64,000 nucleotides of DNA from Squalus acanthias (taxonomy: Eukaryota): positions 76,014,001 to 76,078,000 of the forward strand of contig CM059432.1 in assembly GCA_030390025.1 (NCBI GenBank). The letters are read 5' to 3'. This document shows, in pieces, positions 5,559 through 58,200 of the stretch (its first letter is position 1; each line of letters begins with the position of its first letter). The notes beneath the pieces are model-generated. The model saw only the letters and a program-made list of their open reading frames with translations. It made no database searches and had not been told where the DNA came from. A program made the position numbers and the translations under genes.

Positions 5559-7209
5559 ATGATGCAACGGGGAGAGAGCGTGCTCCAAGGTGTTCTGACG
5601 CTGCACTGGAGGCCTTGGTGGAGGAGATGGAGAGGAGGAGAGAGGTCCTCTATCAACAGGGGGCCAGGAGGCCCTCCAGACAAACTCTGCAAAGGCAGTG
5701 GGAGCAGATAGCCATGGTAGTCAATGCCAGAATTCAAGCCAAGGACCTGGATGCAGTGCTGCAAAAAGTTCAATGACCTCACACGAGTAGTCAATGTCAA
5801 TGAATTCATCTTAAAATGCCACATCTCACCAACTGCACCACTAGCCTCACACACTGCTCAATGCACCACACCCCCATCACTCACCTACCAATAATCTCTA
5901 TCAATCATGACTCATACCTAACATTCATAGCTTCACTTCACCCTCACACACTTAGCACTGTTGTAAGCCTCACACCCACATCTCAAAGCTTGCACACACT
6001 GCCAGCTATTCAATCATGACAGGCACATCACCCAAACAGATTGCACCACACTCACTGACACATGTCCGTCTCTCTTGCACGACAAAGTTGGCGCATAACC
6101 GGAGGCAGCAGGAACTGAGGTGCATTGAGCAGTGTGAGGGACAGGTATGGCTGCATGTACTTACCCCAATGGAGGAGACGGTGGTCCCCATCAATGGAGC
6201 GGCCATCGCTGAGGCCGTGGCCAGCAGCAGGGCTCACATCTCACTTCCCCCCTCATCCCACAATCTTCGTGGTGAGACACTGAGCATGAGTGGCCTGCAG
6301 CCAGGGCAGGGGGAGAGGGTAGCACAGGTGCCAGAACACCAGAGGGCGAGGTTGCACATGAGTTCTGCTGCAGAGGACTCAGATGAGCACTTTGATGGGG
6401 CGGACTACAGAAGAAGGCTGATGGGTATGCACAATTAAATGCTTGGTGCATTGGCAGGCCTGCCAGAAAGCCTGAGTGCAATGTCAAGGAGCATGGAGGC
6501 GTCCGGCACCAACTTGGCACAGGGCTTTGTGCAGAGCTTAGAGCCCATCCTTTCCAGCATGGAAGTGGTGGCCAACTCCATTAGCACACTTGTGGACCCA
6601 ACCATGATGTAGTGTCTGATGGCCGAGGTCTCAGCTTCCATTGCAGCACAAGCAAAAGCCACCCAACGTCTGGGTGCTGCAGTGGATGCTCAGACTTCTG
6701 CCATGCAAACTTAGACGGCTCTCATGCAAGCTCAACTTGCTGCCATGCAAGCAGAGACTGCTGCCATCATAGCTGCGGGTACCAGTGTTCAAAGGGGCTT
6801 GCAGGGTGTCACAGCAGTCCAGTAATCTGTCCTCCAACAGATTACTAGGACTGCTGAGGCGCCGCCATGGGGCAGTGGCTCCATGGAGCATGAACCTGCT
6901 GTCCTCTCTCAGGATAACAGCATTCATCCTCCCACCACTGCCACTCCGCCAGTGCCCTTGCGATTGCCTGTCAGCCAGCCAGCCCAGACTGCTGCCGCCC
7001 ATAACAAGATGGTGCAGTCCAAAGCCGGGCCTTCTAGACCCAGAGATGCTTGAGGTTGTCCTCCAAGGCCATCTGCAGTCTCCCTCACTGAAAATCAGCA
7101 GTCTTCAACCAGCCATGCTGCAGCCACTGGGGTAGCACTGCGTAGGAGCACTAGGACATGCAAAGGCACACAGAAGACAGGCACTAAGGAACTACTCAAG
7201 AGTGATTAG
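5559..7209 (+). pseudogene. H1 Myb/SANT-like DNA-binding partner, disrupted
   Basis: RERAPRCSDAALEALVEEMERRREVL...W..IA..VNA; KLAHNRRQQ segment; C-terminal LRRSTR; frameshifts and stops. Confidence 0.8.
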
Positions 7210-17439: not shown

Positions 17440-18306
17440 ATTTGGGGCCTATATTGATGTGCCCCTTCAATCATAACCTCCTTGCCACAGTGGAATGTTG
17501 GAGGTGTTCAATGCGTCAGTCACCTGCTTTATGTTACTGTGGTAACCTGTGGTAACCTGAAAGGAGTCGGGGTGAAAAAAAAGTTCAAAGCTGCAGTGAT
17601 TTCCCAGGAGGTTGGACGCAGGTCAACTTTCAGCATGTGGCACAACTCTGTCACTGGCTCCCTGGTGAAGCGTGGTCTCTGCATGCTCTTCCAACAATCT
17701 CAGGAATGTTCACCTTGGCATGCATTTTAGTTAGTGGATAAGTGCAGTCCTCCTACTATCTGGTGTTCCTTTAACAGCATCCTCACACTATTCCTCCTCC
17801 TCTTCCTCCAAGTAAAGCCAAATAAAGAAGGATTCCCGTACGGTCACGCATAGGCTGGGAAGCTTTCAAAAGTGGCTACACTAAAATTGCTCCTGTAAAC
17901 TTCCCTTCACACCGAGTGCAAAAAAGTTGCAAAAAGTTATTGACAACACCAAAACAAAATGCTGTAAACATACCTGGTGATAACAGCATAGCCCTTTAAA
18001 TGCTTAGCACTTCAAGCAATTGCTTTATATCCATATACCCCAAGGTTTTTGGGTGTGATCAGGAGCTAGTGTAATACCAGTAGAAATACCACAAAATCAC
18101 ATTGACATCTACATGACATACCTTCCAGCTATTTCCATATCTTCATGTAGCTTCTGCCTATTTTGAATGGGAGTTTCTGCCACTCACCCCAAACACCAAT
18201 GAAAAATCTGATAGCATGCGGGCTGGATTTATCTCCATCCAATTTCCAGTACTGTGGCAGCTGTCTGCGGTGGTTTCTGGAGTGTAACGGAGAATAAAAT
18301 TGGCCC
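17440..18306 (-). mobile_element. Internally deleted, old Harbinger remnant
   Basis: Minus strand ~17570-17690 reads RFTREPVTELCHMLKVDL (transposase N-terminus); terminus AAAATTGGCCC at ~18306. Confidence 0.5.
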
Positions 18307-22439: not shown

Positions 22440-23981
22440 TCAAGGATGGATGAGATAGTTGGAGAAGGTCTCCTCAATGTGAAGCTGGAGAACTGTTCTT
22501 GTAGTTAGCAAAGGTTGTCCGTCAACCGCATCCAAACCTTGTTGATGTTCACTGCTGTCCTCTGGGTGGTTCATGTTGATTGTTCCTTGTACTGTGAAGT
22601 TGTGGAGCATGACAATGATGCATAAGACTTCAGCCAGGCTATATTGTACAACATCCCCAGATCTATTTAGACATCTGCATCTTTTCTTCACTATGCCTAA
22701 GGGCAGCTCAATAATGGCCCTCATAGAGGCATATACTTCATTATACCTGTGCTTGCCATAAAAATGCCATGCGATGTCAGGGCTGCAAATGTTAACCTTT
22801 GTTCCCAGGAATCAACTTTGCATTTTCCTTTCTGAGTCAATTAATGGGGGCATGGTGGATTGCCTTAAAATAATGACATGATGAGAGCTGCCTGAAAAAC
22901 AGGCATTGATGTACATGATCCTGTGCAGATGGTCAGAGACAAGCTGGATGTTGGAGTGGTAGCTCTTGCAGATCATGAGTAGACCATTATTTTATGCAGG
23001 AGCACATAGAGCAATCAATGATGTCCTAGTCTTTGGGAAATGCTGCCATTTGAAAAAAGCCCAAAGCACTCTCCTGTTGTTGCCAGAAGTCCATGGGTAA
23101 AGTAATGAAGTTGCTAGCTCTGCAAACAATGCCTAAGTCACCTGTATATGCAGACTGCAGGTCGAGTGATGATGCTGATGTCCCCAGTAGCAGTCTGAAA
23201 TGAGCCTGAGGCAAAAATATTTGCAGCTGATTTGGCCTTGACTGCCATTACAGTGCTGTGCCTGTCCTGAAGTTTGACTGCAGGTCAGTTTGCAGTACGC
23301 GACTCAACTCTGTTGTACGTCCCCTGGTGAATTATAGCCTCCACATACATTATTCCTCACACATGCCATTCGTAGTCTATATATATATGCGATTGGGAGG
23401 GTAATGGTGAGTGGGTGCAGTCACACTGTAATGTAATCTGATTGACCTGACAGCCCTTGATCCTCCTCTTTGTCTTCTTTCAAATAGCATAAATAAAGAG
23501 GAATTATCATAGAGATACACAATTCCCCAACGACTAGTTCATTAGAAGAAACAGGTACATTAAATTTGTGCTATAATCCCCTTGGCCACAAAATGGTACA
23601 GAACAGAAAACAACAGAAGTACAAAAAAGCAGTTTGAAAGCACACTTGAAACTTACGGGCAGTTCTTTAAACAACTTTGCATTGAAAGGTCCAGCCTAGA
23701 AATCCTGGCCACCCAATTTACCTTGGTGAAATGAAGAAGCAGTGTACTTCCAACATAAAGGTCAGAAAATGATTAATGTCTCAATAATGTCTCTGCATTA
23801 TCATATAAAAGTGAAACCACCACCTGTTTCTGGTGAAAGTTTTGTGCACTGTTCATTTTCACCGTTGGAAATTTGCATCATTTGAATTGTGGCCATCATG
23901 CATTATGATTTCCACCCACATTTCAGCTCTAATGCCACTATTCTGCACATTTATGGACTATCAGAGATGAAAATTGGGGCC
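22440..23981 (-). mobile_element. Old Harbinger H4: decayed transposase and right terminus
   Basis: RAIIE..GIVKKRCRCLNRSG..QYS..MLHN; FITLPMD..QQESALGF; terminus AAAATTGGGGCC; left end not resolved. Confidence 0.7.
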
Positions 23982-24458
23982 TTTCTCTATAGTAAACAAA
24001 ATAAGCAGTTAACTGTAGTTTTTCAATGAAACTTTTACTCAGAAAGGCTTCTTCAATAACATCTTCCAGCTTGTTTTCAAATCATTTGGAAAGACAAACT
24101 TCTATACTGTTGTGCATTGAACCAAAACATGCTTATAAATTTACACTGAGAAAAATAAATACATTGGCCGGAATTTTCTGTACCTGGGCGGGCTGGGTGC
24201 GGGCGGTCAGCGTGGCGGGTCGCGACCCCGTTGTTGCTTCCATCTCGCTGCAGAAATCAACTTTGTGCTAATGGGGCCTATTAAGCCCACCCTTCGTGTT
24301 ACTCGGCCCTTTTAAATGGTGTGGGTCTGATGACGTCATCCATGACATGCTTTCAGCCGGGATATTTAAAGGAGCCATGGCCACACTGCATTGAAGGTTC
24401 ATCTAGGAGTGTGCAGGTAGCACACTAGAGGTTTTCATTGCTCCAAACAGTTGGAGAG

Positions 24459-26314
24459 ATGGCTGCACAGAGGCAGAGGGCTGCACCCAGGTTCTTCGAT
24501 GACTCCCTCCATATGCTTGTGGAGGGAGTCAGAGCATGCCTCTTCAGAGCATGTCAGAGGTCCTCTTCCCTTCTAATGGGCGGAAGAAACCTCCCCAGGA
24601 GACAAAAAGAGCTTGGCTCCAAATTGCAGAGGAGGTCAACAGCAGGGATGTTGTGAGGAGGACCTGGGTGCAGTGCCGGAAATGTTTCAATGATCTCATT
24701 AGATCTGGAAAGGTGAGTACAAAGCCACACTCAACTTCATCCTGCTGTGCCTCTCATCACATCCCCATCACTCTGCCTTCCCAACCTTTCTCCTGCACAT
24801 CCTTACTCACACCAACATACCTTGCACGTCCACCCATCCCTCTCTATCTACATTATCACATCCCCATCTTACTAGCCACCCCTCACACTCAGCCTCACCC
24901 TAGTGCAATCATACCAACTAACAACACACAAGGAGGCCACTTGGCTTTGCCACCCCAATCCATCATAGTCTCCCTCTAAAGATGTAGTCCCATAGTCTCA
25001 CTCAACCTCTTCTTTCCCTCCTTGCAGAAGAAAGTGCACAATAAGAGGGAGAAGGAGAGAACCGGAGGTGGGCCTCCATCATTTGCCACCCTCACAACAG
25101 CAGAGGAGGCTGTGTTGGAAGTATCGGGAGTGGCCGAGCAGCTGGAGGTGGGAGACGGAGAGAGGGGGTCATCTCAGGAACCTGGTGACAGAATTAAACA
25201 TCATACAGCTACATGGCATACAGCAGTCACTCATATGGGGACTGATGTCATCAGCCACTGAATGGTCATCGTGTGCATAATGGTATCTGTACCCATTCTT
25301 CATATGGCATATCTAACTCATCTCTTTACTCTCCCACAGGTCCATCAAGAGCCACCCCTCCCCCCCCTACTGTCCAGGAGGAAGAGCAAGACGACTCCTC
25401 AGATGAGCCTCCAGCCTCTGAGGGCGCAGGTCACTAGACATGAGCGCACCCAGCACCAGTGCAGAGACACACACCTCGGTGGGTCCCATGCGAGATAGAG
25501 TAATGTTGTCACCGGGTCCATCACAAGTCACAGGTGAGCAAGAGCAGATGGTGGAGACAGGGACAGCAGTGGAGAATCCTCGCCAGAGGGCGCAGGGCGC
25601 TCCCAGCTCTGCTCAGCTGCATGCAGACGCTGAGTCTCAGGGGCCATCCAGAAAGAGGGCATTACTGGAGGTGCAGGAAGAAGTGCAGGAGGCTCTGACA
25701 AGTTTTGTGAGCGCGATGTCTGCAAATGTTCAGAGAATGGAGGAGTCCATCTCCAACATGAGCACCACCGTGTCGCAGGCGATGATGACTGTAGGCTCTT
25801 CCATGGATAGGATGGCCACCTGCATGGAGCAGCTAATGCAGCACTCAAAGGAGCACATGGTCTCTATGGAGAATAGATGGCTATCTATGGAGCATAGATG
25901 GCAGAGGCTCATAGACCTCCTCTCTAGGAGGGATGTCAGCGTAGATGTGGGTCCTCATGGCCCCACTGATGTGCAGCAAGGTGCTCTCCAGCTCCTTGCT
26001 AGCAGGGAAGTGTGGGTGGCCCATGAGAGGGATGACGATGAGAGGGGAGAGACAAGTTTTGGATCCTCTCAAAGCACTTACACTTCTCCCCCGTTGCCAC
26101 CCCTCGGACAGCGATGGCCGAGTCTACCCCTGCACAGTCTCAGGAGGGACAGACTTTGGCGGGGCCATCACAGACTCCAAAACCCAGAGGACGTCCGCCA
26201 AGAGTGTCTAAGCAGTCGCAGCAGGGAAGTGAGCAGGCTGCCTCTACCTCTGCTGAAGCCACAGGAGTAGCACCTCATAGAAGCACGCGGAAGAGAAAGA
26301 TGACACATAAGTAG
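24459..26314 (+). pseudogene. H2 Myb/SANT partner, three exons (~24459-24712, 25028-25184, 25340-26314), frameshifted
   Basis: RAAPRFFDDSL..W.QIAEEVNS..RTWVQCRKCFNDL; KKVHNKREKERTGGGP; C-terminal PRGRPP and RSTRKRK. Confidence 0.85.
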
Positions 26315-26612
26315 ATTCACAAGGGTAGCCACTTGAGTGTTTTAGTCAATGTTAATGGCAAGTTTCCGTTCATGTATTGTCAATCATTAAAATCTTTATT
26401 TTCACCACTTTCTGGTCTTGGATACATTTATGTGCATCTTTGGAAGTGGCTTAGTGAGTTGCAGTGACTGGTGAGACATAACAGAACCTCCAGCAATGGT
26501 GGTCAGTGTGAAAGGAATGGCTTGGTCATTGTAGGGATCCTTTATGGTGTTGCTGTGGGCTGGTGCCAACCTGGCGCAGCATGTGGCAGTCATATGGGTG
26601 TAATGCGTAAAG

Positions 26613-27844
26613 TTAAGTAAATCTGGCCATGATGAGGCCATCCCTGGCCTCCCGGGCAGCAATGTGCTCGGGTGCTGATGGGATCTGGCCCGCAGGTTCC
26701 TCCAGCTCTTGCTTCTCCTTGTCTTCCAGCTGATGCTCCTCCTCCTGTTCCTCCTCCTCTGAAGAGACTGTGCGTTCTGTGCCTTGCTCCTCATGCAGCA
26801 CTAATCCTCGCTGCTGCGCTATGTTGTCCAGGGCGCAGCAGAGCACAATGATTCTGAGACCCTGGCTGGTACATACTGAAGGGCTCCTCCAGATGTGTCA
26901 AGGCATCTGAAGCGCATTTTGAGCATGCCTATTGTCTGCTCTATGACACATCTAGTGGAAAGGTGGCTTTCATTGTATCTCTCCTGGGCCTCAGTACTTA
27001 GCCTCCTCAAGGGTGTCATGAGCCACGTCTTCAGTGGATAGCCCTTGTCTCCAAGCAGCTAGCCAGAAGTCTGTTTGGAGGAGCAAAGAGCTGAGGGAGG
27101 TTGGACTGGTGAAGGACGAAAGAGTCATGGCAGCTACCAGGGAAATTGGCACACACATGCTTGATGATCTTCCTATGGTTGCAGACCAGCTGCACAGTGA
27201 GGGAATGGAAGCCCTTGCGGCTGACAAACACTCCTGGGTGATGATGGGGTGCCCTGATGACCACATGTGTGCAGTCGATGCGGCCTGCACTCGTAGGAAG
27301 CCAGCCAGAGTGGCAAAGCTGATCGCCCGCTCAGTAACACTGGCTTCATCAGTGGCAAAGTTGATATAATTGTCTGACTTGTCAAAGACAGCATCGGTGA
27401 CCTGTGTGATGCATCTGTGGGCGGCCGACAGCGAGATGCTGCAAATGTCCGCTGCAGATCCCTGGAAGGAGCCTGAGGTGAAGAAGTTGAGGGTGCTGGT
27501 AACTTTGACAGTCACTGGTGAGGCGTGTCCACCCACTCCTCTGGGCTGCAGGTCTTGCTCGAGCAATGTGCAAATGTCTACGTCTACCTGGCGCGATAGC
27601 CTGAGCCTCCTTTGGCACTGCTGCTCAGTCATGTTGAGGTAACCATCCTCTGCCTGTATACCCTGTGTTGGGGGTATTGCCTTCAGCGCGGTGCAGCCCT
27701 GCGCTGATGCCCTCTGTCCTGTGCAGCATCAAGTGGTTGAGGAGAAGGTTGGTGGTGCTGATGGTGTGCCTGGTGCTGCTGGTGTTGGGGCTCATCGTGG
27801 TCCGATTCTGAGGACCAAGGTGACACAGTATAAACGGCACCCAT
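26613..27844 (-). pseudogene. H2 Harbinger DDE transposase, frameshifted
   Basis: [41 protein letters not shown], acidic tail. Confidence 0.9.
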
Positions 27845-29258
27845 GCTGATGAAATAGATGGATGGTCAAGTAGAGATCAGAGCAGCAAGCTGTCAGTTGA
27901 GTGATAGGTTCTACCAATGAGGTGAGACTGGATGGCGACTTTGCTGGAAGCACTTGCAGCCTGTAGAAAGCTAAATGTGTGTTGGGAATTCAGCCAACAA
28001 CAGCTTCTGCCTGAGGAAAGTGACCAGCTGTGAGGTGGGAGGTTTTATAGTACATTTGATGCTGTCAACTAATCAGCTGGAGCAATGGCCACTCTACTCC
28101 CGCCTCAGGCTGACAGGCGTGGTTCCCGAGCTGTGTGAATCCTGTGGGCAGCCAGGGAAATTCGAAAGGTAGGCTGAAAAAGGCTCTTAAGGGTCTGACA
28201 ACTACCTGTTAATGATTTGAATTAGGTCGCCTGCCTCTGCCGGTCAGGTCGCTGCCGGACCGGCAAACACGCCCAAGGGAACGGCGTGTGGAGGCGGGAT
28301 GATGGCGGGTACCCGACCCGCTGCAGCTTTTTTCAAATTTCCCACGCGACCCGCACGGACCCCAGAAAATTATGGCCATTTTCTTTAAATGATCATATAT
28401 ACTATTAAAATTGTACGTCCTGTCAGCTTTCCATTCAAAAGTTCCATCTCAACAATGCCTATGAGTTTTTCAATGTTAATTGTATGCACATCAGGTGACG
28501 TCTTTAATGTGGTAGCTGTGAGATCTAGCTCACAGCTTCCACATTAAGATCTAGCTCTACTTTAAGATCTATCTCTACTTTAAGATCTAGCTCTGCCTGC
28601 ACTTTCACACTGGCCCTGGCCACTCAGGGAGCATCATCCAGGAGCAAATTTCAGAAATGGTTCTGCCAGCTGGATGCCATATTTTTTTAAGTGGTTTTTG
28701 TTCTCAGGTAAGTTGGTTTTTATCTTAATTTTCAACTTTAAAAACATGCTGCTTTCATTTTATGTTTAAAGTATGTTTTGTAACTTTCTTACACTATGTC
28801 CCCTCCCGTCCTTTCCTTTTTTTAGATGAGTAACAGGACTCCCAGTTGGGGCCCTGCTCTGCCTGTTCTAATTCTTGCTCCTGACGGTCTTACTGTCCTC
28901 CCATCCTCAAAACAACCCTCTCCATTCATTTCATCAACTGCCAGGCCTTGGTGTTTAACGCCCATCGATCTCAGGCCAGTTCTCCGGCTCTGATGTGCCG
29001 CCATCTGCCCTCATTCACCTCCAGCCGGTTCTCTTCCACTGCTTTTCCCACCACTTTCTGTCGCCTGCTCAATGCCCCTGTTTTTAGTCTCAATGGGCAC
29101 CTTTCAGCCATCTGGGCCATCATTTCTCTCCCGCCTCTTGTCATGCATTTCTGCCTCCCACCTTGGCCAGCCGACTTTGGGCCTCTGGCATCGTTGCGAC
29201 TCCCCTTAGGCTTCCAGCTCCCATCACTGCTCCCTGCTGTTGTGCCTGGTAATTCTTA

Positions 29259-45441: not shown

Positions 45442-46782
45442 TTACTACAATTATCTAGGGCCTTGTTGAGACCACACCTGGAGTACTGTGTACAGTTTTG
45501 CTCTCCTTACCTATACTTGCCTTAGAAGGAGTGTAATGAAGGTTCACTAGACTGATTCCTGGGATGAGGGGATTGTCCTATGACTAGGATTGAGATGAGG
45601 AGAAATTTCTTCACTCAAAGGGTTATGAATCTTTGGAATTCTCTACCCCAGAGAGCTGTGGATGCTGAGTAGTTGAGTATATTCAAGACAGAGCTCGATA
45701 GATTTTTGGATACTAAGGGAATCAAGGCATATGGGGATAGTGCAGGAAGGTGGGGTTGAGGTAGAAGATCAGCCATGATCTTATTGAATGGCGGAGCAGA
45801 CTTGAAGGGCCTACTCCTGCTCCCATTTCTTATGTTCTGAACAAACAAGAGGCGTCCTTTACCCACGACTGAAACAGGCGTTAGGTGCCTTATTTGCATA
45901 TGCAAAGAGCCTAACACCTGTTTGAGGTCCCCGCTGGACAATTGGTTTGTCCGGAGGCTGGCTGCACTCCAGGAAACCAACTTACAGATCAACTGCAGAA
46001 ACAAGGTAAGTTATTTAACTGTAACGCATCTTCCCTATTGCCGCCGCTCCCCCCCGTCCCCCTCCCCCCGCTGACCCCGCCACGGCCCCGAGATCCCTGA
46101 TCTCCAGGACCTGGCTAACCTCTTGTCTCCCCGCTGGCCCCAACCTCCAGGCTCCCTAGATTTATCAACTTGCCACAATCGCTCCCCGAGGCCTCCCAAG
46201 CCCCGCGATTCCCCACCCCCGAGCCCCACTATCCCCCCGGCCAACAATCACTTACCCGCATGGCCTCCTCCTGCCTCGCCATTGATATGGGAATGAGAAC
46301 CGAGGCCCAATATCCGGGCTCCTCGGACTCAACCATCCGTGCACAGGGTAATTCGGTCATGCTGTTTAATCACGGTGCCCTGTGTTAATATCACATCATG
46401 GACACATTCAATTATGAAATACTATGGGGTAGAAATTAGGTCGCGCCCCATTTGGGGCGCAAATATCGTCCGCGCGCAAATATTAGCGCCTGGCGCTAAT
46501 TATCGGCACTGACAGGAAACTTCACTTTTACCACCCCGGGAGGTGAGTGGAGCGCTAAATTAGGCGCTGCACACCTCTCTTAAGGCGCAAAGGCCTAGGA
46601 GTGAGGCGCTACCTCAGCGCACGAGCGCAGCGCAGCTGCTGCCAGTTAGCGAGGGAACACAGACACACTGGCGCCGGACACTTCTTAAAGCGGGGGGGGC
46701 CACTTGCTCCCCAGCCACACCCTGCTCATTGCAGCCTTGAATCTCAGCCTGGAGAGACCTGTAATCCATTTTGCTGCCAAGC

Positions 46783-47019
46783 ATGGAGAGGGTGAGAGAA
46801 CGCGCTCATCGCTTCACCGAGCGGGCCTTGGATGCTCTGGTTGACGTAGTGGAGCGCAGACGATGCATGCTGTTCCCGGAGAGTGGCAGGAGGCCTTTGC
46901 CACGCGAGTTCAGAAGAGTGTGGAGGGAGGTGGCTCAGAGCGTCTCCTCCAGGAGCATGGTGCCCAGGACCCATGTCCAGTGCCGCAAAAAGTTCAACGA
47001 CCTCACTCGGGTCGTCAGG
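46783..47019 (+). CDS. H3 Myb/SANT-like protein exon 1
   Basis: MERVRERAHRFTERALDALV...W.EVAQSV...RTHVQCRKKFNDL; donor AGG|GTGAGT, phase 0. Confidence 0.88.
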
Positions 47020-47160
47020 GTGAGTGGCTTTTTCTCAATACCTCTCCATCCCTCCATCTCAACCTCACTCTATGGCCAGAGGGTCTTAAAACCCCAATGC
47101 ACAACACTCATGCAACACCTATGGCCCTTTCATCAAACACACACACACATTCCACACTTT

Positions 47161-47384
47161 GCATACAGTAAGGGCTATTCACCTATGGGAGGCACATCAG
47201 GCAAGACCATGGCTGCATACAGTAAGGGCTATTCACCTATGGGAGGCACATCAGGCAAGACCATGGCTGCATACAGTAAGGGCTATTCACCTATGGGAGG
47301 CACATCAGGCAAGACCATGGCTGCATATTGTAAGGGCTATTCACCTATGGGAGGCACATCAGGCAAGACCATGGCTGTATATTG
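47161..47384. repeat. 54-bp minisatellite, about 4.1 copies, in intron 1 of the H3 Myb gene
   Basis: Unit GCATACAGTAAGGGCTATTCACCTATGGGAGGCACATCAGGCAAGACCATGGCT. Confidence 0.95.
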
Positions 47385-47411
47385 ACTCAGATGCTGTCCT
47401 TTTTCTTGCAG

Positions 47412-47574
47412 GCTAAGCTGGCTCATAATCGGAGACAGCAGCAACGGACGGGTGGAGGGCGGCTTCAGCTGCAACCCCTCAGCGATCTGGAGGAGCGCGT
47501 CCACAGGATTGTGGCAAGCCGGGTGATCGGTCCCGTCGCCACTGGAGACGCCGACCCCGTTCTGGACAGCAATG
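47412..47574 (+). CDS. H3 Myb/SANT-like protein exon 2
   Basis: Acceptor ttcttgcag; AKLAHNRRQQQRTGGG...LSDLEERV; donor G|GTAAGG, phase 1. Confidence 0.85.
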
Positions 47575-47733
47575 GTAAGGTCATCACCTTTTTGTCCTCT
47601 GTCCTTCCACTTGTCCCTCACAATACCAGCCTTTGACACTTTCAATCCAACTTGCTAACTCGCTGCACTTATTCCTCCCTTACTGCCACCCTGTCCTCAC
47701 GCTAAAGCCACTCTTGTACCTCCCTGCTTTCAG

Positions 47734-48713
47734 ATGGTGATTCACCAGCTGAGGAGATGGTCCCTGAAGCTGCCACTGGGAGTGATGCTGCAGCTGAGGA
47801 GGAAGAGGAAGCCGGAGCATCAGTGCCACCCTCTCCCGAGGAAGCCCATGGCCACACTGGGAACACGCCTTCCCCGGAGGGGAGCAGGGGGGAAGGGGCT
47901 GATGATGGTGAAGTTCCAGGACCCAGCGGGCTGCAGCCACGCCATGGGGGGGGGAGGGAAGAACGGGAGCCTTCTCCCCAGAGGGAGAGTATGCCAGACA
48001 CTCCTAATGCAATGGACGCAGAGGAGGAGCGGCTGATTGCAGAAATGAACAGCCAGGCGGTGGGCATGCACACTGAGCTCATGGGTGCAGTGGGAAGGGT
48101 GCCCGAATGCATTGAGGCATTGGCAAGGAGTGTGGAGCACTTCGCTGTAGCACAGGCGGATGCCACACTAAAGCTTAGTGCTGCAATTCAGTCACTGGCT
48201 GCCAGGAACCCATCTGAGACTGCTCTCATGCAGACTCAGATTGAGGCCACGCGAGCACTGACTGCTGCCATCCTCGATGGTTCGTGCACATGTCCCCGGG
48301 GCTGTCACCGCGCCGCAGCAGGCCAGCAATCTGTTCTCCGGCAAATTGCTCCGGATGCTGAAGTGCTGCCCCGTGGGAGTGCCAGTGTGTCGGGCGAGCA
48401 GGGAGTTGCTGTCCTCTCTCACGATGACAGCATTCCTGCTGCCAACACTGTCACTTCTCCACTGCACTTGCCACCGCCTGTAGGACAGACTGCTGCCGCC
48501 CATGCAGAGTTGGTGCAGTCTGCAGCCGGGCCCTCCAGGCCCAGAAGTGGTCGAGGCCGTCCTTCAGGGGCATCTGCAGTGTCAGGGTCTGACAAGCAGC
48601 AGCCTTCCACCAGCCTTGCTGCAGCCACTGAGGTCCCATTACGGAGGAGCAGTAGGGTTAGAAGGGGGGAAGTGCGCAAGGGAAGGAGATCACCCTCGAA
48701 GGGCAAAAAGTAG
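47734..48713 (+). CDS. H3 Myb/SANT-like protein exon 3 (spliced total 1380 nt, 459 aa)
   Basis: Acceptor ctttcag; in frame with ORF 47757-48713; acidic region, heptad-like region, basic tail. Confidence 0.83.
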
Positions 48714-49007
48714 GAGGTGTGCCAAAATGCTGGTCATTTTTTTATTAAAGGCCGAGGTTCATGGCCCAACTTTTGTTTAGTGTTTTGGACATTATCTCCA
48801 GGTTGTGAGAACCAGTTATGTTATTGACTGTTTTTTTGTGTTTATTTCTATGAGTTTGTCATGAGGAATTGACACACACAGAGTTTGTACAATAAATAAG
48901 TTTCTGTATTCAAAATATACATGGCTGGTGGTTGGAATTATTGGTGCCTTGGCCGGCTTAGGGGTTGCGTGCTGGGTTGATTCGTGTTTGTAGCACTGGC
49001 AGGGGCC

Positions 49008-50168
49008 CTAGAAGCGGCTTGCTATTAGTCGTTGACGGACGGCCCTTGCAGTTTGACCATTGTGGGCCGCCCTCCTGCCTTGGTGCTGCTGCTGATCATC
49101 GTCCTCGGCCTGTTCCTCCTCTTCCTCCTCCTCCTCTTGTGGTGCTGCAAGGCCTGGTGGCATTGGCTGCGTCCTGAGGATTGCCATGTTGTGCAACATG
49201 CAGCACACCACTACGAATTTGGAAACTTGCTCAGGCGAGTACTGCAGGGCTCCTCCGGAATGGTCCAGACAGCGGAATCGTTGTTTGAGCACGCCGATTG
49301 TGCGCTCAATAATGTTCCTGGTTGCTTGTTGGCTTTCCTGGTACCGCAGCTCAGCAGGGGTGTTTGGCGCACGGAGCGGTGTCATCAGCCAGGTGCTCAA
49401 TGCGTACCCCTTGTCCCCCAGAAGCCAACCAACTGGCTGATGCGGTGCCTTGAAAATTTCTGCCACAGTACTCTGGCGCAGGATGAAAGCATCGTGGCAG
49501 CTGCCCGGATAGTGGGCATTGACAGCGAGAATCACCTGTCTGTGGTCACAGACCAACTGCACATTCAAGGAATGGAACCCCTTTCTGTTCCGGAACTCCT
49601 CTGCATTCTCTCGCGGAGCACGCAAAGCCACATGCGTGCAGTCAATGGCGCCCTGCACCATGGGGAAGCCCGCTACCCTCGCAAAGCCCATAGCACGGTC
49701 ATGCTGCTTGTCTGGGGTCATAGGGAAGGAGATGAAGTCTCGTCTCCTTGTGAAGAGGGCATTGGTGACCTGCCGGATGCAGCGATGCACCGCAAACTGG
49801 GAGATATTGGCGAGGTCCCCAACAGCAGCTTGGAATGAGCCAGTGGCGTAGAAGTTCAAAGCCACTGTGACCTTCACTGCCACCGACAGAGACGTCCTGG
49901 ACCTCAGCTGAGGCTGCAGATCTGGCTGCAGCAGGTGGCAGAGCTCAGTGACCACCTCCTTGCTGAATCGCAGCCTTCGCAAACACAGCTCCTCGGACAT
50001 GTGGATGTAGGAGAGCTGTTCACGATATACCCTGGGAGGGTAAGCTCTCCTGTACATGCGCCTGATGGCCCTCCTCCGTCTGGCCATCATTGCCACTCTC
50101 TGTCTGCGTCTCACTCTCCTCCGATTGAGCTGGAGCAGGACGACGCCCCCAATCATTGCAGCCCCCAT
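49008..50168 (-). CDS. H3 Harbinger (HARBI1-like, DDE_Tnp_4) transposase, 386 aa
   Basis: Uninterrupted ORF; GAIDCTHV, LLGDKGY, RNIIERTIG catalytic motifs; YPGSCHDAFI; CCMLHN. Confidence 0.95.
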   Translation of the reverse strand: MGAAMIGGVVLLQLNRRRVRRRQRVAMMARRRRAIRRMYRRAYPPRVYREQLSYIHMSEELCLRRLRFSKEVVTELCHLLQPDLQPQLRSRTSLSVAVKVTVALNFYATGSFQAAVGDLANISQFAVHRCIRQVTNALFTRRRDFISFPMTPDKQHDRAMGFARVAGFPMVQGAIDCTHVALRAPRENAEEFRNRKGFHSLNVQLVCDHRQVILAVNAHYPGSCHDAFILRQSTVAEIFKAPHQPVGWLLGDKGYALSTWLMTPLRAPNTPAELRYQESQQATRNIIERTIGVLKQRFRCLDHSGGALQYSPEQVSKFVVVCCMLHNMAILRTQPMPPGLAAPQEEEEEEEEQAEDDDQQQHQGRRAAHNGQTARAVRQRLIASRF

Positions 50169-51464
50169 ATTCTCTTTGCCAGAAAAGTAATGAGGTACAG
50201 CAACGAAAGTAGCAGCAAAGTTAGGATGAACTAGGCAAAACTACCTCACAAAGCGTTGAGTCAATGTAGAAGTCTCTCTCTCTCTCTCTCCGAATCTCTC
50301 TCTCTCTCTCAGAACGAGTGGTGCATAAATGTTGACCACAGAAAAAGACAGGAAGAGGCCCCCTTTAAATAGCGCCCCCCCCAGCCCCACACCGATTGAT
50401 AACGTTCCAGTCTTCCGGTCGTTGGAAGCGCCAGGCGGTAAGGCAGGGGGCGCCACTCAATTTCCGCTCCGGGGCGCCCCAAGGGCGTTGCACCACGGAA
50501 TGACGTCACAATCTGCGCGCGCAGGTGGTCACAGCGGTAAGTTTTAGCGCCGCCGCACAATCTCAAGTTAAGTTCTCGAGCGGCGCAAACAGCGCTGCGC
50601 CCGGGCGTTAGCGCCTTAACGCCCCATTAGTGCCCATTTAAGGCGCTAACGGGAGGCACAACCAACTGAATTTTTACCCCTATTAGTCAGAACATACTTT
50701 CTGAAAACAATCACACCACTTCTTGATGTAAGATTTACCGCAACACTGTGAATGATCAATCCTCTTTAACCAGTTTTGCAATGTTAAATAATAGTCATCA
50801 CAATGACTCAACTAAAGCAGTCTATATTACATAGGATTTGCATATCAAATTGCTTTGTCATCAGGAGTATATTCAGATGCTTCTGGTTTCTATGGCTACC
50901 TTATATAATCACTGACTTGATACCACAATAATTGGCTCTATTTTCAGAACAAAATAAGAGACCACATAATGACAGGAAATGGAGCTCTGTTTCAATGAGG
51001 ATTCTGGTTAAACTAGTATTTCAAGTTTTATTTTGGAGTGCACTATCCCAGCACAGTGTGAACCCCACAGTGTATAACCAATTACACAGGTCATACAGCA
51101 CAAAACCTCTCACCTCACAAAAGTTTTCATACTGCACAGTATCAATCACAGCTCAAAATGACTTTCAGTGTCCTGGTCCCGATTTCAAAACTGCTGGCCT
51201 ACAAAAGTACCGATTTATTTAGTCTATCCAGACTACTGTATTTTTTTATACATAAGCTAAACTTTGTTTCCTTTTCTTTTGGTTTTAATTGTCCTATTTC
51301 AACTTCTTTATTTTACATAGAATTTACAGCACATAAACAGGCCATTCGGCCCACTGCTCCACACAAACCTCCTCCCACTCTATTTACTTCATCTAACCCT
51401 ATCAACATATCCTTCTATTCCTTTCTCTCTGATGTAGTTATCTAGCTTCCCCTTAAATTCATCT

Positions 51465-57799: not shown

Positions 57800-58200
57800 C
57801 CTGTTCACTGCATATAAAGCAAAAGACTGACTTACCTAGACTTGCCTGAGGAACAGTATATATGTTAGCTAGGTCTCATCGAGAAAGCTGTGATATCGAG
57901 TTATGCTGAATGCTGCAATCTGACTTGCAGCCAAACTCTAGGACAGACACGATACTGCCAGTAGTTGTCAAGGTCACTTCAGCCTGAACTCTTTTGCCTC
58001 TAGCTAGCATTACTGTATTTGCCAATGTGCTAGCGACACATGTATCAAACAGGTGACTGATGCGTAGCTAGAACTTTCATCTTGTTTCCTACTGAAGAGC
58101 AACAGAAGCATGATATGTCTGTCCAATTTCACCATACTGCACAAAGCATAAAGTACATGGGGTCATTGATGGCAGCAAAATAGCCAACTGGCCAGCAGAG
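57800..58200 (+). pseudogene. Very old Harbinger transposase remnant
   Basis: YLDLPEEQ...LQSDLQP...LPVVVKVTSA...CIKQVTDA...GVIDG. Confidence 0.6.

Follow-up and report, generated by a model that had tools for sequence, protein, structure and literature searches.

A conserved motif block at the C-terminus of the Myb partner of Squalus acanthias Harbinger transposons, with candidate nucleosome- and USP7-binding motifs

The window, a 64-kb stretch of Squalus acanthias DNA, contains three Harbinger elements with readable Myb genes, designated H1, H2 and H3. Heavily decayed Harbinger transposase remnants are also present in it at 22530-23526, 17565-17684 and 57898-58064. The features considered below are as follows.

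46426..50680, no strand: H3 Harbinger DNA transposon, intact; ends taken from the sequence, the right end being the end of conservation in 30 copies
46783..47019, plus strand: H3 Myb partner exon 1 with Myb/SANT domain (Pfam PF13873, E 7e-10) and GT donor
47412..47574, plus strand: H3 Myb partner exon 2, with AG/GT sites and open frame
47734..48713, plus strand: H3 Myb partner exon 3, coding for an acidic linker with an internal PGPS, a helical region and a predicted disordered tail; stop at 48713
49008..50168, minus strand: H3 DDE transposase, open frame from the ORF list (Pfam PF13359, E 6e-38); first Met at 50168
48525..48536, plus strand: AGPS, candidate motif of the USP7 TRAF-pocket type P/A/ExxS, from the translation; A[GE]PS in 6/6 families
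48552..48563, plus strand: RGRP, AT-hook core, from the translation; in 4/6 families
48603..48614, plus strand: PSTS, second candidate P/AxxS site; PSTS or ASTS in 6/6 families, with a one-residue shift between clades
48642..48656, plus strand: RRSSR, core of the HMGN/Dsup/Dot5 acidic-patch motif; RRSxR in 6/6 families at offsets 39-43 from AGPS
7024..7155, plus strand: H1 tail block, decayed, with a stop codon in the AT-hook (six-frame translation, family codon table)
24166..28377, no strand: H2 Harbinger element, decayed; inverted repeats GGCC(G/A)(G/T)AATTTTC, ATT duplication
26159..26299, plus strand: H2 tail block, decayed, with a frameshift upstream in the exon and RRSTR reading HRSTR (translation, family codon table)

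The elements were assigned to the PIF/Harbinger group by a DDE_Tnp_4 transposase (PF13359) and a second gene with a Myb/SANT domain (PF13873), both over the Pfam cut-off, and by short terminal inverted repeats together with a 3-bp target duplication (TAT for H3, ATT for H2). The inverted repeats of H3 read GGGGTA(G/A)AAATT and its duplication lies at 46423-46425 and 50681-50683. H3 is a young, intact element: all 150 genome matches listed for its transposase were 99-100% identical, and 30 copies showed a mean identity of 98.7% to their own consensus. Near-identical H3 sequence (46700-48800) was present in sequencing runs of at least six organisms with a word share of 0.43-0.80, which may reflect close relatives or recent horizontal spread.

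The transposase and Myb genes of H3 are arranged tail to tail. The three Myb exons give a spliced protein of 459 amino acids, and the joined frame has one stop only. The joint of intron 2 (47573>47733, GT..AG) was found in contigs of two of four sequencing runs, from two studies, which we presume, as a guess, to be RNA; the joint of intron 1 was absent from the listing for the same four runs, and no RNA run is on record among the sequencing runs with H3 sequence. In intron 1, a 54-bp unit is present in about four copies, arranged head to tail (47166-47380). In the majority alignment of the H3 copies (L001-L030), a tandem duplication of about 27 codons doubles the internal PGPS, of which the window copy (47880-47965) has one unit. 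Pfam reported no family on exon 3, and a comparison of this exon with a protein set clustered at 90% gave no match among 7995 candidates scored. Exon 1 compared with longer proteins gave one match among 118 candidates, and the best score of an atlas search was 0.89 with low recognition, a lead only. The structure model of a relative (P0015) shows two long helices at residues 228-353 and a pLDDT below 50 from residue 352 to the end.

A preliminary description of the window had stated that the Myb partners of the three elements end alike, and six-frame translation recovered all three tails as written. In H1, AGPS starts at 7024, the codons TGA-GGT-TGT occupy 7051-7059 and RRSTR starts at 7141; in H2, the corresponding positions are 26159 for AGPS, 26186 for RGRPP, 26240 for ASTS and 26276 for HRSTRKRK. 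The TGA and TGT of H1 had been taken for CpG-decayed arginine codons, which the codon counts of the H1 family (29 loci aligned) confirmed: the first broken codon is most often CGA (10/26 copies; TAA 5, TGA 3, CAA 2) and the second most often CGT (8/26; CAT 5). Similarly, the histidine codon of HRSTR in H2 is a decayed CGT in the family (CGT 18/46, CAT 14, TGT 6). The three tails are one homologous block rather than three separate matches, because H1 and H3 are sister families with transposases 68% identical; the two are 55% identical upstream of the block too.

The distribution of the block was analyzed in family consensus sequences built from 30 loci each, collected by transposase, for H3, H1, H2, F5, F6 and F4. 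F5 and F6 were met in 80 evenly spaced 10-kb genome samples and F4 comprises the best Pfam matches; one H1 locus and two F6 loci without clustering were dropped before the consensus was formed. A query with L158:6627-6878 returned 30 mixed loci, of which 21 joined H2 and nine were unused, and gave no new family. F9, a third clade, was obtained from two decayed tail queries, with 56/60 loci kept after removal of three duplicates and one F5-like locus, so that five of the six block-bearing families were collected by transposase alone. An antisense transposase remnant is present in 27/40 F9 loci examined; the consensus of this remnant shows 52-66% identity to the transposase consensus sequences of the other five families that have the block. 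The transposases of the six block-bearing families are 53-76% identical; in a tree of the transposases, H3 falls together with H1, a second group consists of H2, F5 and F6, and F4 has a long branch.

A block of 44 residues is present in register and ungapped in the consensus tails of all six of these families in this genome. With the A of AGPS as position 0, A[GE]PS occupies 0-3, an R stands at 9, P/ASTS occupies 26-29 or 27-30 and RRSxR occupies 39-43. As to the shared module of AT-hook, STS motif and RRS-x-R proposed in the preliminary description, A[GE]PS, xSTS and RRSxR each occur in 6/6 consensus sequences, with selection at the protein level (see below), so that conservation of these motifs across families held; RGRP is found in H3, H1, H2 and F5 only, with RGRR in F6 and RSHR in F9. 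AGPS, for which the preliminary description offered no interpretation, is among the best-kept parts of the block and the AT-hook is the least kept. Positions without a motif label are also well kept, namely S16, Q25, A31, A33, T34 and G35. F9 is old and was queried with decayed tails lacking intact motifs, and its consensus again contains AGPS, PSTS and RRSSR. The seventh family, F4, has no block; its protein ends in SRKRKRR and has one internal PGPS. The F4 copies are 95% identical to their consensus, indicating a recent spread, so Harbinger elements do not require the block to spread in this genome.

A profile of the block gave 25 matches of at least 15 bits in 800 kb of evenly spaced samples, two of which are one frameshifted copy, and none in a reversed-sequence control. 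Scaling this density of about one per 33 kb to the genome of 3.71 Gb would give about a hundred thousand copies of the tail block, mostly decayed. Four sampled copies (L129:6896, L130:4149, L159:9905 and L161:1384) start at the same point just before RGRP, which suggests that an H1-like family has given rise to a non-autonomous derivative by deletion.

Codon comparisons showed purifying selection on the motif codons. For AGPS, RGRP and RRSxR (12 codons), a comparison of the two main clades gave a pS of 0.69 and a pN of 0.07 (pN/pS 0.10), as against a pS of 0.62 and a pN of 0.56 in the linker codons (pN/pS 0.90); there is some circularity in this test, since H1-H3 had served for the choice of the motifs. 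The 14 codons upstream of the block showed a pS of 0.59 and a pN of 0.41. Within the motifs, arginine codons switched between CGA and AGA and between AGG and CGT; a constraint at the DNA level was ruled out, since the motif codons vary at synonymous sites. In four distant shark proteins, which lay outside the motif choice, the motif columns matched at a rate of 0.63 versus 0.31 elsewhere (p 0.0004, column permutation). In F9, AGPS was kept in 19/20 residue comparisons, RRSxR was kept and RGRP was kept in 6/20; the codon of the first arginine (n=53) was CAT in 18, CGT in 12 and TGT in 11 copies, a split typical of a decayed CGT. For the STS stretch, pN/pS was 0.28 within clade B and 1.27 when the clades were compared in the ungapped register, where the low ratio is lost because the site shifts by one residue.

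These data also bear on the explanation that the tails are alike by common descent only, without special constraint. All block carriers form one clade, and the similarity of H1 and H3 extends upstream of the block, as this explanation would have it. However, the synonymous sites of the motifs have diverged as far as those of the linkers and the amino acids have not, and the column test on independent proteins gave the p of 0.0004 mentioned above. Descent without constraint is thus largely refuted already and we consider it very improbable.

A search with the Myb domain alone as query yielded 71 proteins, and the block was recognisable in six of these: P0012 and P0015 of Heptranchias, P0004 of Pristiophorus, P0013 of Mustelus (cut short) and P0014 and P0049 of Scyliorhinus. 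A profile search added four further block carriers from Heptranchias; related tails are thus present in four other shark genera. Among the Myb-domain matches, the block was absent from the named teleost, axolotl and ray relatives, many of which have other arginine-rich tails. RRSxR is exact in only 2/10 proteins of other sharks and RRG[ST]R occurs in three more, these being single predicted proteins that may be decayed. Five proteins from rays, whale shark, zebra shark and Heptranchias (P0001, P0008, P0010, P0011, P0022) resemble F9 and P0012 and have no tail block; this group may represent a domesticated gene from which the block has disappeared. In two Heptranchias gene models (P0099, P0100), pieces of a Harbinger Myb gene are joined to host genes, with a CDK2-like isoform ending in the whole tail block and an ODF2-like isoform ending in exon 2; they may represent exonisation or annotation errors. 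Distant Myb relatives (P0029, P0052, P0055, P0059, P0060) have other arginine motifs at their ends, e.g., RGRP in two goby proteins and LRSGRS in a sawfish protein, which we take to resemble the chromatin motif of LANA. Judging by these motifs, different families may use different chromatin anchors.

The proposed resemblance of RRS-x-R to arginine anchors of nucleosome-binding proteins was borne out by a match to a solved acidic-patch motif, PPRRSSRLT of Dsup (PMC12487698). HMGN (RRSARLSA), Dsup (RRSSRLTS) and Dot5 (RRSARIAT) have the core R-R-S-x-R in common, and its arginines 1, 2 and 5 matter for nucleosome binding (PMC12487698; PMC6773438; 10.64898/2026.01.14.699602). The structure of Dsup shows arginines 1 and 5 of the core buried in the acidic patch and a hydrogen bond between the serine and H2A (PMC12487698). 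The shark tail retains all three arginines and this serine (PLRRSSRV in H3 versus PPRRSSRL in Dsup), but not the L/I-S/T-A/S/T residues that follow the core in the three known proteins; the shark tails continue with VRR (H3), TGK (H1), KRK (H2, F5, F6) or VRK (F9). A further difference is that the carrier of the shark tail is a transposon factor whose nucleosome binding is putative. The acidic-patch residues are present in the H2A of this genome, and we slightly favour that the tail binds this patch. Co-folding of shark H2A-H2B and the C-terminal 41 residues of H3 gave a score of 0.02 and a mark of 0.34 (controls not folded), which we count neither for nor against binding; AlphaFold 3 is noted to fail on the HMGN2-nucleosome complex too (PMC12487698). 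A comparison of the tail with PDB sequences returned one chance match only (E 1).

An AT-hook has an R-G-R-P core with basic or proline flanks. Such a core is present in H3, H1, H2 and F5 and is lacking in F6 and F9, and in the families having RGRP the hook probably works. A comparable layout is found in the C-terminal part of ELYS, where an AT-hook is combined with an RRK acidic-patch stretch and the arginine stretch counts more than the hook (PMC6499780). As in ELYS, the AT-hook of the shark tail is followed by a terminal arginine stretch, and the relative importance of the two parts fits their relative conservation. Unlike in ELYS, the spacing is shorter and P/AxxS sites are added, so that the likeness is one of layout and no sequence kinship is claimed.

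The two serine-containing motifs of the block are identical to known ligands of the USP7 TRAF pocket. In USP11, the USP7 site has been mapped to AGPS, which has also been reported for TPP1 (PMC6203733); PSTS is the USP7 site of HDM2, MCM-BP and vIRF-2, ASTS is that of vIRF-4, and EBNA1 and DDX24 are EGPS ligands (PMC6203733, PMC6955280). DDX24 has 15 P/A/ExxS sites, and its PSTS did not matter (PMC6203733). The P/A/ExxS pattern, which carries little information and thereby speaks against this reading, was found at site 1 in 12/15 tails and at site 2 in 13/15, with both sites in F9. Ten Myb proteins contained 13 exact USP7-type tetrapeptides compared to 1.4 in shuffles (0/5000 reached 13) and six transposases contained none, the pattern having been chosen after the fact and the proteins being related. 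The motif set was likewise chosen after seeing the sequences in both the shuffle test and the main codon test. As in the known ligands, the tetrapeptides are paired and lie in a region predicted to be disordered, as in the P0015 model; unlike them, the tail is only a candidate ligand, and no transposon protein was found among USP7 ligands in the literature searched. Docking of the tail to USP7 is a possibility that we rate a little below even.

The preliminary description had instead compared PSTS with a SPOP-binding degron and suggested that the partner is turned over by ubiquitination. The SPOP degron consensus is nonpolar-polar-S-S/T-S/T (PMC4361392). None of the 15 tails contains it, H3, H1 and F9 reading QPSTS, and the degron reading was rejected. 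A looser SPOP pattern, [AVP]x[ST][ST][ST], occurs in 7/15 tails, H3 and H1 not among them. The idea of turnover was not supported either: AGPS, PSTS and ASTS equal USP7-binding motifs, which would point to stabilisation of the partner.

The AT-hook had further been linked, tentatively, to AT-rich insertion targets. Right flanks were found for 28/30 loci of H3, 18/30 of F5, 19/30 of F4, 19/30 of H2, 12/30 of H1 and 12/30 of F6. Near-flank GC was 0.359 in F4 (19 ends) versus 0.387 in H3 and F5 combined (46 ends; p 0.47). At 21-150 bp, flanks of the five block-bearing families tested were 2-5 GC points below background and those of F4 about one point (H3 and F5 versus F4, p 0.30). F4, which has no block, thus has equally AT-rich near flanks, and RGRP is replaced in 2/6 families; the tail is apparently not needed for AT-rich targets because F4 shares them, and on this comparison the AT-hook was rejected as target selector. 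The first three flank bases are A/T only in 22/28 H3 ends. A purine at +4 was present in 26/28 and T at +7 in 25/28 H3 ends, compared to 19/19 and 13/19 in F4. Beyond the 3-bp duplication, insertion sites of H3 and F5 favour T at +7 and a purine, in most cases G, at +4, the G being weaker in F4 (L001-L030, L231-L260, L091-L120). This preference recalls the target of zebrafish Harbinger3_DR, a long palindrome.

Known tasks of the Myb partner are binding to the element ends and nuclear delivery of the transposase (summarised in PMC9392472). The last 65 or so residues of the partner form a selected motif tail, predicted to be disordered, to which we give an even chance of being a nucleosome tether with USP7 docking. 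In such a mechanism, the arginines at either end of RRSxR would enter the acidic patch of H2A-H2B, as in Dsup and HMGN2, and RGRP, where present, would additionally contact DNA in the minor groove, like the tail of ELYS. The Myb partner, and the transposase with it, would thereby be tethered to nucleosomes. AGPS and P/ASTS would bind the USP7 TRAF pocket, so that the partner or the transpososome is protected from degradation. The effect of the tail would be a long-lived complex that stays on chromatin, and the tail would have no role in choosing the target sequence. We infer all of these binding steps from motifs of four to five residues.

Other functions of the tail have to be weighed against this tether. 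The combination originally proposed, an S/T-rich SPOP degron that limits the protein and an AT-hook that steers insertion to AT-rich DNA, could draw on the loose pattern in 7/15 tails and on the lower GC of the 21-150 bp flanks in block-bearing families than in F4. It appears improbable, given the missing strict consensus, the flank comparisons with F4, which were not significant at either distance, and the defined sequence beside the duplication, which is common to H3 and F4. The main competing explanation is that the tail serves mainly nuclear or nucleolar import and general nucleic-acid binding, with the serines as phosphorylation switches and the likeness to HMGN and USP7 ligands incidental. 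Classical nuclear localisation signals read K-K/R-x-K/R or are bipartite with a spacing of 10-12. The monopartite pattern was found in one of 15 tails (F5) and the bipartite one also in one (H3); this rarity speaks against the import explanation but leaves room for non-classical import. RRSxR runs into KRK in H2, F5 and F6, F4 ends in the plain SRKRKRR, 28/53 Myb relatives have at least six K/R in their last 25 residues, and import of the transposase is a reported task of the Myb partner (PMC9392472). Import, however, needs neither arginine invariably in place of lysine, nor the serine, a fixed 39-residue offset or AGPS, and we regard a mere import tail as a serious but rather unlikely explanation.

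The well-kept Q25, A33, T34 and G35 imply that the true partner of the tail may read a longer surface. The whole block might then be one extended surface for another partner, e.g., the transposase itself, a second Myb protein in a dimer or another chromatin factor. The exactly kept spacing, which independent short motifs need not show, and the conservation of S16 and A31 along with the four residues above argue for such a surface. It is less easily reconciled with linker codons that change almost freely (pN/pS 0.90) and with the predicted disorder of the tail, and contact between Myb protein and transposase is reported via the N-terminus of the latter, no region of the tail being mentioned in the part of the source available (PMC9392472). 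We therefore judge it unlikely, more so than import.

If the tail acts as the proposed nucleosome tether, the HMGN-like motif of HMGN, Dsup and Dot5 would extend to mobile elements. A selected tail with motifs of the acidic-patch and USP7 types gives the Myb partner a testable chromatin role, and H3, being young and intact in many copies, allows a direct transposition assay with point mutants. The tail may also bear on the repeated recruitment of Harbinger Myb genes into chromatin complexes. Harbinger elements stand out by their need for a second protein, which the sections of the literature consulted credit only with end binding and nuclear import (PMC9392472, PMC9921582, PMC13668399).

The shark elements share with known PIF/Harbinger systems, i.e., the Myb-like partner of Harbinger3_DR, ORF1 of rice Ping/Pong and the domesticated NAIF1 and MSANTD1-4, the two genes for a DDE transposase and a Myb/SANT protein, the short inverted repeats and the 3-bp duplication. 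In contrast, a C-terminal motif block is not mentioned for these partners in the available portions of three papers (PMC9392472, PMC13668399, PMC9921582), and 'C-terminal' and 'AT-hook' have 0 occurrences in the available text of PMC9392472. The preliminary description knew of no such report, and in agreement with this we found none in the literature searched, mostly at abstract level; an earlier mapping could stand in Sinzelle 2008 or Repbase. The tail is thus apparently an undescribed, selected motif block on a known kind of protein.

The herpesvirus proteins EBNA1 and LANA hold episomes on chromatin by AT-hook or acidic-patch tethers. As proposed for the Harbinger partner, they combine a domain for the element's own repeats with USP7 docking (PMC6955280), but their folds and life cycle are unrelated to it. 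By this analogy, a cut-and-paste DNA transposon might have independently evolved a tether of the herpesvirus style, with Myb on the element ends, an HMGN-like anchor and AT-hook on nucleosomes and USP7 for protection, which we consider possible but doubtful. If true, it would explain what purpose Harbinger partners have for their sequence outside the Myb domain, and host genes would find ready chromatin-docking modules in the tail copies of shark genomes, about a hundred thousand in number.
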